DNA of 64,000 nt from an uncultured Acidobacteriota bacterium (GCA_963776915.1 CAVZPE010000013.1:82951-146950), one strand, 5' to 3'. Positions 27,714 to 33,806 are shown, counted from the stretch's first letter. Notes: generated by a model from the letters alone, not told the origin. Made by a program: numbers and translations.

Positions 27714-28691
27714 CTATCGCGGGCCGAGCGCCGCGGGGACCATCCGCAGGTACTCGGTCGTGCGGCGCTTGCGCTCGAAATCGCGGAAGGCCCGCCGCAC
27801 CTGCTCGGCCGTGAGGCCGGCCTCGCGGGCGACGTCCTCGACCGGGGCGTTTCGCTCCTGGGCCGACCACAGGACGTCCATGAGCGCGAACGGGAGCCGG
27901 AAGAAGAACTCCTCCTGCGTGCTGCCGGCTGCGTACGTGTCGCTCGTGGGCGGCCGCCGGCGAATCTCCTCGGGCACGCCGAGGAAGTCCGCGAGCCGGT
28001 AGACCTGCGTCTTGAACAGGTGGACGATGGGCTGGACGTCGGCGCCGCCGTCTCCGAACTTCACGAAGAACCCCTGGTCGTGCTCGTTCTTGTTCGCCGT
28101 CCCGACGACCGCGAGGTGCCTCGACTCGGCGTGGTAGTAGAGCATCGCCATGCGCGAGCGCTGCTTGAAGTTCGAGGCCGCGACCGTCTGGAGGTACTCG
28201 GAGCGCCCCGGCGGGCGGCTCGTGGTCTCTCCGTTTCGCGCGACGACCGTGAGGGAGAAGAGGTTGAAGCCGTCCTGCTCGAGGAGCCCTTCGGGGAGCG
28301 TGATCCGAGCCCTGTCCCCGGCGGCCGGGTCGTATCCGGGGAAGACGCGGCGAATCGCCTCGTCGCGCCGCCGGTAGCATCCGAAGCCCTCGAGAGCCGG
28401 CGTCATGTCCTCCCGCAGCGGCTCGACGCCGAGCCGGCCCGCGACTTCGCGCGCGAGCCGCTCGCTCTCGGGATCCGATTCGCGCTCCGGGAGCAGGAGG
28501 GCGACGACGCGTCCGGGGCCGAACGCTTTCACGGCGAGCGCGAGGACGACGGACGAGTCGACTCCGCCGCTGATGCCGACGACCGCTCCGTGGCGCCGCA
28601 TCGCGTGGTGCACGGTTTCGCGGAGGAAGGCGACGATCCGGTCCGTCTCGGCCGCGGGGTCGAGTTCGAGCGCGTCGGTCAGGTGGCTCAT
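27714..28691 (-). CDS. nadE: NAD+ synthetase-like PP-loop ATP pyrophosphatase (NadE family, no glutaminase domain)
   Basis: ..VVGISGGVDSSVV.. PP-loop, ..NKNEHDQGFFVKFGDGGADVQPI.. and ..TSDTYAAGSTQEE... The ATG at 28691 overlaps the AsnB stop (ATGA). Confidence 0.8.
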   Translation of the reverse strand: MSHLTDALELDPAAETDRIVAFLRETVHHAMRRHGAVVGISGGVDSSVVLALAVKAFGPGRVVALLLPERESDPESERLAREVAGRLGVEPLREDMTPALEGFGCYRRRDEAIRRVFPGYDPAAGDRARITLPEGLLEQDGFNLFSLTVVARNGETTSRPPGRSEYLQTVAASNFKQRSRMAMLYYHAESRHLAVVGTANKNEHDQGFFVKFGDGGADVQPIVHLFKTQVYRLADFLGVPEEIRRRPPTSDTYAAGSTQEEFFFRLPFALMDVLWSAQERNAPVEDVAREAGLTAEQVRRAFRDFERKRRTTEYLRMVPAALGPR

Positions 28692-30677
28692 GTCGCGTCC
28701 TCCGGGCCGCCGTGCGGCCCCGCATGGATCAACGGGGCTTCCGCCGCCGGGACGGGCGGCGGAGCCTCGAATCGGGTCACGAAACGCGCGAGCAGTATCT
28801 GCGTGGACAGGATTCCGGCGAGCGCCATCTCGTCCGTCTCGCTCAGGGCAACGCCGCTCCCGGCCTTCTCGACGAGCCCGGCGACCGCGCGCGCGTCGAA
28901 GAGCCCCGCCCTCGTGATCTCGGAAGGGGAGAGGAGGTCGCGGACGTACTCGGGCCGCCCGGCGCCGAAGAAGCTCCGGCCGATCGGGGCGCGATAGGGG
29001 CGCTTGGGCCTCGCCCGGATCTCCTCGGGGACCCAGCCCTTCACGGCCGTCCTCAGGAGCGCCTTCTCCTCGAGGACGCGGAGCTTCAGGTCGGAAGGCA
29101 GAGCGGCGCAGAACTCGAAGAGGCGGGTGTCGAGGAAGGGGTGCCGCCCCTCGACGGAGTGGGCCATCGCGACGCGGTCCCCCTGCGACGAGAGGAGGTA
29201 CTGGGGGAGAAAGAGGCTCGTCTCGAGGTACTGGGCTCTCTGGAGCGGGTCCCAGTTCGTGAAGTCCGGCGGGATGCCGAGCCGGGAGGTCGCGGAGCCG
29301 CGTCGCGAGAGGTCCCCCCGGAGCGCCTCGGCGAAGAATCGTTTCGTCCGCGCCGTGTTCCTCCAGCGGACCGCGTGCGAGTAGTCGGGCGACGCCGTGT
29401 CGGTCAGCGACGCTCCGAAGAACGCCCGCAGGTAGGAGTCGTTGACCCGGCCGAGCCCGGGGATGTCGGGGTAGAGCCGCCTCAGGAGCAGCGGGCGCCA
29501 GCGCGAATCGGGTCGGCGCGCCCAGAACCGCCGGATCATCGTCTCCTTGAAGATGTCGTAGCCGGCGAGGAGCTCGTCCGCTCCCTCGCCCGTGAGGACG
29601 ACCTTGAAGCCGTGGTCGCGCACGAGCTTCGACAGGAGGAACATCGGGACGGGGGCCGTGCGGAGCACGGGTGTCTCCGTGTGCCACACGACCTCGGGGA
29701 AGGCGCGGCCGATGTCCGCGTGAGTCGCCTCGAGGACGTGGTGGCGGGTCCCGAGCGCCTCGGCCATCCGGGTCTGGTGCTCCCGCTCGTCGAAATCGTC
29801 GTCCCGGAACGCGATGGAGAAGGTCTCGAGCCGGTCCGGAACCAGGCGCCTCGCGATCGCGGCGATCGTCGAGGAGTCGAGGCCGCCGCTCAGGTAGGCG
29901 CCGACCGGCACGTCGGCCCGCAGCCGGATCCGCGTCGCGTCGACGAGCAGCGCGCGGAGCTCCTCGGCGCAGTCCGCCTCCTCGCGGCGGCGCCCGCGCG
30001 CGTAGGTCGGCCGCCACCAGGATTCGAGCGACGCTGCCGCGCCGGCTCACGGTCAGGGTGTGGCCGGGCGGAAGCTCGGAGATGCCCTCGAAGGCGCTGC
30101 GGCCCGGAAGCGTGCTCCAGAAGGTGAAGATCTCGTCCAGGCCGAGCGGGTCGATCCGGGCCGTGAACCGGCCCTCCGCGAGGAGGGCCTTGATCTCGGA
30201 GCCGAAGCCGAAGACGCCGCCCGACCGCGCGTAGAAGAGCGGCCGGACCCCGAGGCGGTCCCGCGCGAGGAAGAGGGATTCCGCCTTCCGGTCCCAGATC
30301 GCCGCCGCGAACTGTCCGTTGAGGCGGTCGAGGCACGCGGGGCCGAGGTCCTCGTAGAGATGGAGCAGGACCTCGGTGTCGCTGCGCGTCCGGAACCGGT
30401 GTCCCCGCTTCTCGAGTCCGGCCCGCAGCTCGAGGTGGTTGAAGATCTCGCCGTTGAAGACGATCCAGAGCGACGCGTCCTCGTTCGGGATCGGCTGGCG
30501 GCCGCCCGCGAGGTCGACGATGCTGAGCCGGGCGCTTCCGAGCCCGACGTCGCCGTCGAGACAGATGCCCATCTGATCCGGTCCGCGGTGGCGGATCGTC
30601 GCGAGCATCCGCCTGAGGCTGGCCTCCTCGACCGGGGGCCCGTCGCCCAAGTTGAGGAGCCCGACGATGCCGCACAT
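28688..30677 (-). CDS. asparagine synthetase B-type glutamine amidotransferase (1 apparent frameshift near 30025)
   Basis: N-terminal nucleophile MCGIVG.., ..RGPD.., ..FNGEIFNH.., and the synthetase domain ..AYLSGGLDSS..LTGEGADELLAGY... Its start overlaps the ligase stop (TGATG). Confidence 0.9.
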
Positions 30678-32490: not shown

Positions 32491-32501
32491 CGGGCCCGGC
32501 C

Positions 32502-33806
32502 TCAGGCCCCGTGCTTCTTCTCGCCCGCGTAGAACTGCTCTTCCTCCGTCGAGCCCTTGAGGGCCGACGTGGAGACCTCGCCGCCGGTCACGGTCATCTG
32601 GACCTGGTCGAAGTAGCCCGCGCCGACGAAGCGCTGGTGCTTGACCGCCTGGAACCCGGCGTTCTTCTCCATCTCGAACTCGTGCTCCTGCAGCTTCACG
32701 AAGGCCGACATGCCCTGCGCCCGGTAGCCGTGCGCGAGGTCGTACATCGAGGCGTTCAGCGTGTGGAAGCCCGCGAGCGTGATGAACTGGAACTTGTAGC
32801 CCATCGCGCCGAGCTCGTCCTGGAACGCGGCGATCTCCGCGTCGGAGAGCTTGCGCTTCCAGTTGAACGACGGCGAGCAGTTGTAGGCGAGCGGCTTGCC
32901 GGGGAACTTCTCGTGGACGCCCTGGGCGAACGCCTTCGCCTCGCCGATGTCCGGCGTCGAGGTCTCGCACCAGATGAGGTCGACGTACGGCGCGAAGGCG
33001 CACGCGCGCGCGACGGCGTAGTCGAGCCCGCCCTTGACGATGTAGAAGCCGTCGGCCGTGCGGTCGCCGGTCAGGAAGTCCTGGTCGACCTTGTCGATGT
33101 CGCCGCGGATGAGGTTGGCGCCGAGGGAATCCGTGCGTCCGATGAAGACGGTCGGGACGCCCATGACGTCGGCCGCGAGGCGCGCCGCGATGAGCTTCTG
33201 GACGAAGTCGTGGATCGGGACGAGGACCTTGCCGCCCATGTGCCCGCACTTCTTGAGCGACGAGAGCTGGTCCTCGAGGTGGACGCCGGCGGCGCCGGCC
33301 TCGATCATCGACTTCACGAGCTCGAACGTGTTCAGCGGGCCGCCGAACCCGGCCTCGGCGTCCGCGACGATCGGCGCGAAGTAGTAGACGTCCGTCCGCC
33401 CCTCCATGTGCTGGATCTGGTCCGCGCGCATGAGGGCGTTGTTGATCTTGCGGATCACGCTCGGGACGGACGTGACCGGGTAGAGGCTCTGGTCGGGATA
33501 CATCGTGAGGGCGTCGTTCGCGTCGCCCGCGACCTGCCAGCCCGACAGGTAGATCGCCTTGAGGCCCGCCTGGACCTGCTGGACGGCCTGGTTGCCCGTG
33601 AGCGCGCCGAGGGCGCGGACGAACTTCTCGGTGTGGAGGAGGTTCCAGAGGCGCTCGGCGCCCATCCGGGCGATCGAGTGGTCGAGCTGAACGGTCCCGC
33701 GCAGGCGGTCGACCTCCTGCGCCGTGTAGGGGCGGACGATCCCCTTCCACCTGAGGTCGTTGGACCAGGAACGCTCCAGCTCGTTGACGGACTGCGTGCG
33801 GTACAT
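32502..33806 (-). CDS. aceA: isocitrate lyase
   Basis: ..[22 protein letters not shown].. signature with full-length similarity in pattern. The start is chosen at the ATG at 33806 ([22 protein letters not shown]..). An upstream in-frame ATG is also possible. Confidence 0.92.

Follow-up and report, generated by a model that had tools for sequence, protein, structure and literature searches.

A stretch of 64,000 nucleotides from an uncultured Acidobacteriota bacterium, hereafter the window, carries five minus-strand genes packed with almost no space between them: aceA, a gene for a free-standing carrier protein (ACP), a ligase of the ANL type, an AsnB-type amidotransferase and a NadE-like gene. 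Does this block encode a single pathway, and if so, what would it make? A sequence-only reading of the same DNA had described the five genes and their junctions correctly. The coordinates of all five are verified, 11 nt separate the aceA TGA from the ACP ATG, and the remaining genes overlap at GTGA (ACP and ligase), TGATG (ligase and AsnB) and ATGA (AsnB and NadE-like).

A conserved four-gene cassette and its state in the window

The ACP, ligase, AsnB and NadE-like genes form one conserved, horizontally spread and uncharacterised cassette. Among the 49 loci that were seeded on the NadE-like protein alone and had enough flanking sequence, AsnB was encountered in 46, an ACP homologue within 9 kb of the NadE-like gene in 45 and the ligase in 42; all three were present in 39 and aceA in none. 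A search seeded on the ligase led to the same cassette in Litorilinea, in a Rhodospirillales MAG and in four close relatives. The order of the genes is permuted among lineages and their linkage retained, although a minority of loci are devoid of ligase or AsnB, or possess a different ligase (about 33% identity) missing the D and K residues of the pocket discussed below. The cassette ranges over hundreds of bacterial species from at least eight phyla and is found on plasmids and chromids, the Sinorhizobium meliloti copy being carried by pSymB. Its hosts include the culturable and genetically tractable S. meliloti 1021, Azospirillum, Shinella, Geothrix and Litorilinea. The adjacency first noticed in the window is thus conserved in relatives, and a literature search retrieved neither a characterised pathway of such composition, none having been known to the sequence-only reading either, nor a paper on the ACP-ligase-AsnB-NadE cassette.

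The first gene of the conserved block (32224-32490) encodes an acyl or aminoacyl carrier protein of 88 aa with its phosphopantetheine serine within VDSVG and a Pfam PP-binding score of 25.9 bits (cut-off 20.8). The AsnB gene (28688-30677) encodes a glutamine-hydrolysing amidotransferase possessing the Cys2 nucleophile in MCGIVG and the PP-loop SGGLDSS. Its frame is broken: the glutaminase part lies in the frame of an ORF at 27714-32150 and the synthetase part in an ORF at 28688-29911. Alignment with three relatives reveals one extra base near 30031, overlooked in the earlier reading, and no other lesion. Removal of one base restores a protein of 662 aa that belongs to TIGR01536 (517 bits, cut-off 267), a family assignment that does not make asparagine its predicted product.

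Three genes next to the cassette are co-conserved with it in relatives, which bears out the attention drawn to them earlier. An SGNH-fold lipoprotein of 293 aa with a lipobox at Cys27 (26799-27680, plus strand) adjoins the NadE-like gene in loci L001, L081, L084, L085 and L086-L088. It has no Pfam match above threshold; S63, G106, N108 and H265, which supply the Ser, Gly, Asn and His expected of SGNH blocks I, II, III and V, are invariant in its alignment, and D262 nearly so. Its AF2 model (pLDDT 88) places it in the superfamily since all Foldseek matches are SGNH proteins, headed by the peptidoglycan O-acetyltransferase PatB (7TJB) and including the periplasmic domain of OafA. Judging from this model, the lipoprotein is probably a co-conserved accessory acting as an extracytoplasmic acyl-transferase or esterase on a glycan. 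A HemK/PrmC-family N-methyltransferase of 311 aa (25828-26763, minus strand), with NPPY at residue 207 and a borderline TIGR03534 score (206 bits, cut-off 199), adjoins the cassette in L012, L015, L039 and L086-L088, and its context is the cassette and not prfA in at least eight loci. The third is an NRPS-like C-T-TE gene devoid of an A domain (23257-25840, plus strand; start uncertain, 23035 to 23317), whose Pfam Condensation, PP-binding and Thioesterase domains are spread over two frames. It displays a variant of the condensation motif HQxxxDG and the thioesterase motif GSSFG, and alignment with its intact relatives (794-870 aa) locates one extra base near 24474.

Are these two frame breaks real? 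If so, the cluster would be a decaying remnant in this genome, its sugar-pathway genes having given way to aceA. That each of two genes in the cluster has a +1 insertion outside any homopolymer would fit such decay, as would the surroundings: in a relative with 86% identity the cassette is preceded by DegT and Bac_transf genes and followed by a gene for a PglF-like dehydratase, all three of which are missing from the 64 kb. Against decay stand at least three further frame breaks no more than 20 kb away that affect two M16 peptidases and a 206-aa gene, none of them related to the cluster, and a related long-read-style contig (L001) that has other breaks in the same AsnB. Furthermore, apart from the single base, the AsnB and C-T-TE alignments are free of frame-disrupting lesions and the codon bias is intact past the break. 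We consider decay unlikely; to judge from these sequences, the two frameshifts most likely arose as errors of assembly.

Ligase specificity, glycan context and the proposed product

The ligase (30677-32227, 516 aa) stands alone as an adenylating enzyme, and its specificity pocket is VinN-like. VinN recognizes its substrate through D230, the bulky F231, S299, K330 and R331, and its beta13-beta14 loop has one residue fewer than that of alpha-amino-acid A domains (PMC11253843). All five recognition positions are kept in the window ligase as D223, Y224, T292, K323 and R324, which groups it with VinN-type adenylating enzymes; among 57 cassette ligases, 45-57 conserve these residues. The alignment with VinN (3WV4) runs without a gap through TE-x-KR, that is, across the shortened loop. 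In a PDB search with the pocket region, 3WV4 came first (E 8e-21), 12 orders of magnitude ahead of the runner-up (2.6e-9), and whole-length identity is modest (E 6e-78). 3-Methylaspartate or aspartate is the acid that VinN and FlvN attach to a free ACP (PMC11284099). The pocket keeps the Asp that binds the substrate amino group and the ligase is therefore predicted to be an amino-acid enzyme and not a succinate one. The earlier proposal that a carboxylic acid is loaded onto the carrier holds as far as acid loading goes; it was too general, the pocket being that of an aspartate-type amino-acid adenylating enzyme.

The surroundings of the cassette suggest a likely acceptor. It is mostly located inside cell-surface sugar-polymer loci, with AT3, GT4, GT2, FemAB-like, epimerase, Wzz/PTK, Bac_transf, Wzy_C and DegT genes as recurrent neighbours. 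Glycan-assembly genes lie within 10 kb in 38 of 54 long loci (about 70%). The commonest immediate neighbours are AT3, FemAB-like and GT4, an AT3 gene following the NadE-like gene in 19 loci, and on annotated Azospirillum and Shinella plasmids the cassette stands between glycosyltransferase, O-antigen-ligase and GNAT genes. Aspart-4-yl amides of 4-amino-4,6-dideoxy sugars are known from O-antigens (PMC10609480).

The explanation that we favour, as rather likely, has two joint parts: the cassette would build a nitrogen-modified aminoacyl group on a carrier protein and pass it to an acceptor, which in most genomes would be a cell-surface glycan, and the NadE-like protein would be a pathway-specific paralogue and not a housekeeping NAD synthetase. 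The identity of the ligase substrate rests on the five pocket residues, and the chemistry that we infer is as follows. The ligase would adenylate an aspartate-type amino dicarboxylate at its side-chain carboxyl and transfer it as a thioester to the free ACP, the alpha-carboxylate and the amine staying free. Because loading through the side chain leaves a free carboxylate, AsnB could amidate it: this glutamine-dependent enzyme would adenylate and amidate that carboxylate on the ACP, giving an isoasparaginyl-type unit. The NadE-like enzyme would then perform a second ATP-dependent nitrogen transfer, possibly to another carboxylate, such as one of the acceptor sugar, or as a further conversion of the new amide; against this scheme, aspartate has one free carboxylate only, which gives no reason for a second PP-loop enzyme. 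Finally, a lineage-specific transferase would take the group off the ACP. Here the C-T-TE protein and the SGNH lipoprotein may fulfil this role and the NPPY methyltransferase may N-methylate the amide, whereas elsewhere AT3, FemAB-like/GNAT or hexapeptide-repeat acyltransferases are the candidates.

The block could instead make a small soluble or lipid-linked NRPS-type product, such as an amidated N-methylated dipeptide-like compound, without decorating any glycan. This lineage has the C-T-TE protein and the methyltransferase as partners, and in locus L088 the block has a PKS, another C-T-TE and a PPTase as neighbours. The S. meliloti operon is isolated, with no obvious polysaccharide locus around it, and the 64-kb window yielded no glycosyltransferase, DegT, Bac_transf or AT3 gene. 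These observations are to be weighed against the glycan-assembly genes close to the cassette in most long loci, the identity of its commonest immediate neighbours, the fold of the partner lipoprotein, which is that of glycan O-acyl transferases and esterases, and the bacillosamine-type sugar genes flanking the cassette in the relative with 86% identity. On this balance an NRPS-type product has a small though real probability, and transfer to a surface glycan is the reading retained in what follows.

The NadE-like protein and the upstream isocitrate lyase

The last gene of the block (27714-28691) encodes a NadE-fold PP-loop ATP pyrophosphatase of 325 aa with the motif SGGVDSS. Could it simply be the housekeeping NH3-dependent NAD synthetase, standing beside an ACP-ligase-AsnB module? 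The protein belongs to both NF002048/PRK00876 (438 bits, cut-off 313) and TIGR00552 (158 bits, cut-off 64), and since it passes these models it may still have NAD synthetase activity. It shares with NadE (PF02540; PDB 2E18, 1NSY) the fold, the SGGxDS PP-loop and the GDG/Mg motif region; its ATP and Mg motifs are conserved, the structural matches of its AF2 model (pLDDT 79.5) are exclusively NadE/NAD synthetases, no second PP-loop NadE was found within the 64-kb window, and NAD(+) synthase is the name in every public record. Several observations nevertheless speak against a housekeeping role. First, the gene is linked to AsnB in 46 of the 49 loci across at least eight phyla, a linkage that outlasts the shuffling of gene order. 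Second, in place of the short loop of canonical NadE there is an insertion, conserved and about 56 residues long (roughly residues 91-171), so that the alignment to PDB structures splits into residues 16-90 and 172-310, and identity to the solved NadEs is 17-27%, whereas the cassette proteins are 60-75% identical to one another across phyla. Third, the distribution is patchy, as fits an accessory gene, and includes plasmids and chromids. The NadE-like gene of S. meliloti 1021 is located on pSymB, which can be removed entirely with growth in minimal medium retained (PMC4207669), and it is therefore dispensable. As the S. meliloti protein scores 532 bits end to end against NF002048, that model largely describes the cassette family itself. 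A housekeeping function is accordingly improbable, and these comparisons suggest that the name NAD synthase is probably wrong for the cassette protein.

A broader and more tentative proposal, to which we give slightly less than an even chance, is that the whole NF002048/PRK00876 subfamily would be no NAD synthetase: it would catalyse the second nitrogen addition in a carrier-protein pathway, widespread though undescribed, that places an amidated aspartyl-type group, isoasparaginyl or further modified, on bacterial surface glycans. If true, both the glycan substituent and the use to which the NadE fold is put would be new. NF002048 proteins are uniformly annotated as NAD(+) synthase with a NAD-biosynthesis GO term and appear to belong to an accessory pathway, which affects how the metabolism of hundreds of species is reconstructed.

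The first gene of the block, aceA (32502-33806), has an ATG at 33806 preceded by the Shine-Dalgarno GGAGGAGGAG and encodes a bona fide isocitrate lyase, as proposed from its KKCGHMGGK motif (NF011645, 724 bits, cut-off 562). Its attachment to the unit, also proposed, does not hold: aceA lies outside the conserved unit and has come to stand upstream of it by chance in this genome. It adjoins the cassette in none of 54 comparable loci, and its place is taken by the DegT and Bac_transf genes in the relative with 86% identity. Given the 11-nt gap and since no terminator-like site was found on the minus strand, aceA is probably co-transcribed with the ACP gene here. These two features are also what would favour a single five-gene pathway in which isocitrate lyase supplies an acid, succinate or glyoxylate, that is loaded onto the ACP and then amidated twice, a very improbable reading already largely refuted by synteny, as no aceA homologue occurs in 92 fetched loci and the gene upstream of the ACP gene is a different one in each of four relatives with 73-86% identity, the ligase pocket is moreover that of an amino-acid enzyme, and this aceA is an ordinary ICL equivalog.

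Comparison with known systems

The VinN/VinL/VinO and FlvN pathways resemble the cassette in pairing a stand-alone adenylating enzyme with a stand-alone ACP, in the pocket (D, F/Y, S/T, K, R and a loop shorter by one residue) and, as proposed here, in loading an amino dicarboxylate via its side-chain carboxyl and modifying the remaining carboxylate on the carrier. They differ in that the PLP decarboxylase VinO removes the free carboxylate and the product primes a macrolactam PKS, whereas the cassette continues with two amidating enzymes and is mostly found in a setting of glycan assembly. The cassette does not qualify as a VinN-type pathway, defined by a VinO-like decarboxylase and PKS priming: no VinN-type decarboxylase was found in the window or among recurrent neighbours, and a PKS is adjacent only in L088.

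AT3 + SGNH O-acylation systems (OafA, OatA, PatA/PatB) recall the cassette loci through the SGNH protein, with PatB as best structural match, and through the AT3 genes that follow the NadE-like gene. Their donor is acetyl-CoA instead of the proposed ACP-bound group, and no AT3 gene accompanies the SGNH protein in the 64 kb of this window.

Among the O-antigen amidating enzymes, WbpS performs AsnB-type uronamide formation and WbpG/WbuX/PseA perform PP-loop acetamidino formation. As in the cassette, an AsnB paralogue and a PP-loop ATP pyrophosphatase come together in surface-polysaccharide loci, which sets an example of one sugar unit receiving nitrogen in two different steps. The PP-loop family of WbpG-type enzymes is not that of the NadE-like protein, and these enzymes are partnered by HisH/HisF homologues, none of which we know to stand beside the cassette; to our knowledge, none of these enzymes is linked to an ACP and a ligase.

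The closest parallel in composition is the XrtA/PEP-CTERM module, which consists of a TIGR03098 ligase, an ACP, a TIGR03099 decarboxylase, TIGR03100/03101 hydrolases and a TIGR03108 amidotransferase. The resemblance noted in the sequence-only reading stands insofar as the curated families nearest to the cassette enzymes are those of this module, TIGR03098 being first for the ligase and TIGR03108 second for AsnB, behind the generic TIGR01536. It does not extend to membership: the ligase scores 457 bits (cut-off 592; S. meliloti 458, Litorilinea 489) and the repaired AsnB 435 bits (cut-off 817; relatives 437-446). No decarboxylase, hydrolase or exosortase partner was found among the gene families present in 5 or more of about 90 loci, and the cassette, unlike the XrtA module, includes a NadE-fold enzyme. 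In both systems, exopolysaccharide loci bring together a free ACP with an ANL ligase and an AsnB paralogue that depends on glutamine. By joining the loading of aspartate by its side chain onto a free ACP, predicted here in the manner of VinN, with AsnB-type amidation in polysaccharide loci, the cassette suggests a possible role for the long-unexplained ACP/ligase/AsnB module of the exosortase-A system.

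The ACP-ligase-AsnB-NadE cassette and its boundary

Five consecutive minus-strand genes in the window are backed by codon log-odds calling combined with a frame HMM; at a G+C content of about 71%, raw ORF lists are full of spurious frames and a simple GC3 filter proved too crude. These genes encode an ordinary isocitrate lyase (aceA, 32502-33806), a carrier protein (ACP, 32224-32490), an adenylating enzyme hereafter called the ligase (30677-32227), an AsnB-family protein (28688-30677) and a NadE-family protein (27714-28691). Their junctions had been described in a sequence-only reading that proposed a single five-gene operon, and they hold when checked on the DNA: 11 nt separate the aceA TGA from the ACP ATG, and the following genes overlap through GTGA (ACP/ligase), TGATG (ligase/AsnB) and ATGA (AsnB/NadE). 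The aceA product scores 724 bits against NF011645 (cut-off 562) and contains KKCGHMGGK, and the ATG of the gene at 33806 follows a strong Shine-Dalgarno sequence. The window holds only two PP-loop motifs, and no rRNA was found in it.

Homologues of the ligase share 63-67% identity across phyla, and ligase-seeded loci with ACP, ligase, AsnB and NadE were retrieved from Litorilinea aerophila, a Rhodospirillales MAG and four close relatives. When one genome per species was scanned with NadE-like motifs as the sole seed, at least 558 genomes matched. Gene content was counted in the best 80 of these loci, 49 of which had enough flanking DNA; in that set the NadE-like gene is accompanied by AsnB in 46 loci, by ACP in 45, by the ligase in 42 and by all three in 39. 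The taxa concerned include Chloroflexota, Acidobacteriota, Verrucomicrobiota, Cyanobacteria, Calditrichota, Ignavibacteria, Methylomirabilota and Alpha- and Gammaproteobacteria. Gene order varies by lineage (ligase-AsnB-NadE-ACP, AsnB-NadE-ACP-ligase and ACP-AsnB-ligase-NadE among others) with linkage kept, and linkage that survives such shuffling is a classic mark of a functional unit. One locus (L065, 8080-10945) has a tandem pair of NadE-like genes with an SGNH-like gene between them, then ligase and ACP, and no AsnB nearby.

The aceA gene does not belong to this unit. It accompanies the NadE-like gene in 0/49 loci, and four relatives at 73-86% identity have four different genes upstream of ACP, DegT and Bac_transf genes occupying this position in the 86% relative. 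Conservation thus begins precisely with the ACP gene, and the presence of aceA is accidental to this locus. The proposed operon thus stands in part: adjacency is conserved for ACP, ligase, AsnB and NadE-like, and aceA is excluded. The four-gene cassette is real and uncharacterised; all of its components come from known superfamilies. No description of it was found in the literature, including work on exosortase/amidotransferase, NadE-homologue and Sinorhizobium nadE/asnB topics, in agreement with the earlier remark that no characterised pathway is known to have such a composition.

Frame breaks in AsnB and other genes

The sequence-only reading missed that the AsnB gene is split across two frames. 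DNA alignment with three relatives (73-86% ligase protein identity) locates exactly one extra base near 30031 and reveals no further lesion; its removal restores a 662-aa protein. The same kind of single-base insertion lies near 24474 in a neighbouring gene encoding a condensation, carrier and thioesterase (C-T-TE) protein, whose counterparts in relatives are intact at 794-870 aa. Breaks also interrupt two M16 peptidase genes (at about 39666 and 40665), where Pfam domains are cut mid-profile, and a 206-aa gene (at about 20760) homologous to positions 8970-9590 of another fetched locus, L087. These five breaks within some 20 kb suggest approximately one indel per 4-5 kb for that stretch. Since unrelated genes are affected as well, and since a related contig has its own AsnB broken at different places, the pattern points to indel errors in the assembly. 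Real decay of the cluster would be a less likely cause. A programmed frameshift in AsnB is rejected, the site being intact in four relatives.

An ORF of 1478 aa (27714-32150, minus strand) starts inside the ligase gene, crosses AsnB and ends in NadE; it arises artificially, because the +1 insertion in AsnB shifts the frame and stop codons are rare at 71% G+C. On the same strand, at 22581-22925 and divergent from the C-T-TE gene, lies a fragment of an ECF-type sigma-70 region 4. No region 2 turned up in its frame, and this may be another frame break.

A further irregularity concerns a tRNA-Thr(CGT) segment of 148 nt present in two copies, 99% identical and 6690 nt apart (8349-8496 and 15039-15186). 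The intervening DNA is lower in G+C (0.64-0.67), has little codon-bias support and includes a kinase/PD40 beta-propeller ORF; it was checked for a mobile element and no integrase was found.

Family assignment and the NadE-like protein

The best model for the ligase is TIGR03098 (exosortase-A-associated), at 457 bits against a cut-off of 592. The repaired AsnB exceeds the cut-off of the generic model TIGR01536 (517 bits, cut-off 267) and falls short of that of the XrtA amidotransferase model TIGR03108 (435 bits, cut-off 817). The exosortase-A module, to which the cassette had been likened, is thus its nearest curated neighbour, but both proteins score below the levels that define membership. 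As judged from its residues, AsnB should be an active glutamine amidotransferase, since both its Cys2 nucleophile and its SGGLDSS PP-loop are retained. An identity of the ACP with the OlsHI ornithine-lipid carrier was dropped (44 bits, cut-off 130).

The NadE-like protein passes both NF002048/PRK00876 (438 bits, cut-off 313) and TIGR00552 (158 bits, cut-off 64). It has the NadE fold, with a TM score of 0.75 to P. horikoshii NadE and an identity of only 17-27% to solved NadE structures, and a conserved PP-loop. Its alignment with canonical NadE is interrupted from residue 90 to residue 172; there the canonical enzymes have about 26 residues and the NadE-like protein has an extra segment of about 56, with the invariant residues GFGCY.RRD.A. 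S. meliloti 1021 carries the same four-gene operon on pSymB (NC_003078.1, 1450582-1455388), and related rhizobia have it as well. Following relocation of engA and a tRNA-Arg gene, S. meliloti without pSymB grows in minimal medium (PMC4207669), so the NadE-like protein cannot be the sole NAD synthetase of this organism. The S. meliloti protein matches NF002048 end to end with 532 bits, which indicates that this 'NAD(+) synthase' model essentially describes the cassette family. Misannotation of the NadE-like family is probable; a survey of the NadE family does not mention this subfamily (PMC3376133). The S. meliloti locus tags SMb21525-30 proved to belong to taurine genes. The value of the cassette lies in its breadth, in this probable misannotation and in its presence in tractable organisms.

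Genomic surroundings and proposed chemistry

All ORFs of the loci were clustered and representatives annotated. AT3 membrane acyltransferases immediately follow the NadE-like gene in 19 loci, and FemAB-like/GNAT proteins recur in 12. Other recurrent neighbours are GT4 and GT2 glycosyltransferases, hexapeptide-repeat acyltransferases, NDP-sugar epimerases, Wzz/tyrosine-kinase proteins, Bac_transf, Wzy_C and DegT aminotransferases; 38 of the 54 long loci have at least one recurrent family within 10 kb, and annotated plasmids of Azospirillum ramasamyi and Shinella zoogloeoides display the same pattern. No sugar-pathway genes were found in the 64 kb of the window.

In the window lineage, the cassette co-occurs with an SGNH lipoprotein, a HemK/PrmC-type methyltransferase carrying an NPPY motif and the C-T-TE protein, which lacks an A domain; the neighbours singled out from sequence do travel with it. 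The lipoprotein is predicted to adopt an SGNH fold (pLDDT 88), with the peptidoglycan O-acetyltransferase PatB as best structural match; its Ser, Gly, Asn and His never vary, and the D-x-x-H motif of block V nearly always keeps its Asp. The C domain of C-T-TE reads HQxxxDG in place of the catalytic HHxxxDG near 23800, as it does in four other loci (L012, L032, L037 and L039: two labelled Acidobacteriota, one Bryobacteraceae, one Bifidobacteriaceae), whereas cyanobacterial versions (L084, L085) keep HHxxxDG. In the 73% relative (L088, 1-7199), the block adjoins genes for a large PKS that includes an aminotransferase domain, for a further C-T-TE protein and for a phosphopantetheinyl transferase. 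On S. meliloti pSymB (L089, 25372-28945), about 12 kb from the cassette, a methyltransferase with the NPPY motif shares 41% identity with that of the window and adjoins genes annotated LPS biosynthesis protein and GNAT.

The ligase resembles amino-acid adenylation domains more closely than fatty-acyl-CoA ligases, and over the specificity-pocket region VinN is its best solved relative (E 8e-21; next best 2.6e-9). VinN treats 3-methylaspartate or aspartate as a beta-amino acid, which it activates and loads onto the free ACP VinL, after which a decarboxylase removes the remaining carboxylate (PMC11284099). Its recognition residues D230, F231, S299, K330 and R331, on a loop shortened by one residue (PMC11253843), align ungapped to D223, Y224, T292, K323 and R324 of the window ligase. 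The VinN-type positions are retained in 45-57 of 57 cassette ligases, that of S. meliloti included, and this pocket suggests aspartate-type loading through the side-chain carboxyl.

We propose that the ligase would thioesterify an aspartate-type amino dicarboxylate via its side-chain carboxyl, that AsnB would next amidate the carboxylate still free, and that a variable transferase would deliver the group to an acceptor. Candidate transferases are C-T-TE with the SGNH protein in the window, and AT3, FemAB-like or hexapeptide-repeat enzymes elsewhere. Confidence is moderate for loading and first amidation and low for any NadE-like step, whose target is the weakest point because aspartate has just one spare carboxylate. 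The substituents known from O-antigens include aspart-4-yl amides of 4-amino-4,6-dideoxy sugars (PMC10609480), and the 86% relative is flanked by genes making a 4-amino-4,6-dideoxy sugar. For the overall logic of the cassette there are two precedents, one in the XrtA-associated module and one in the VinN/VinL pair.
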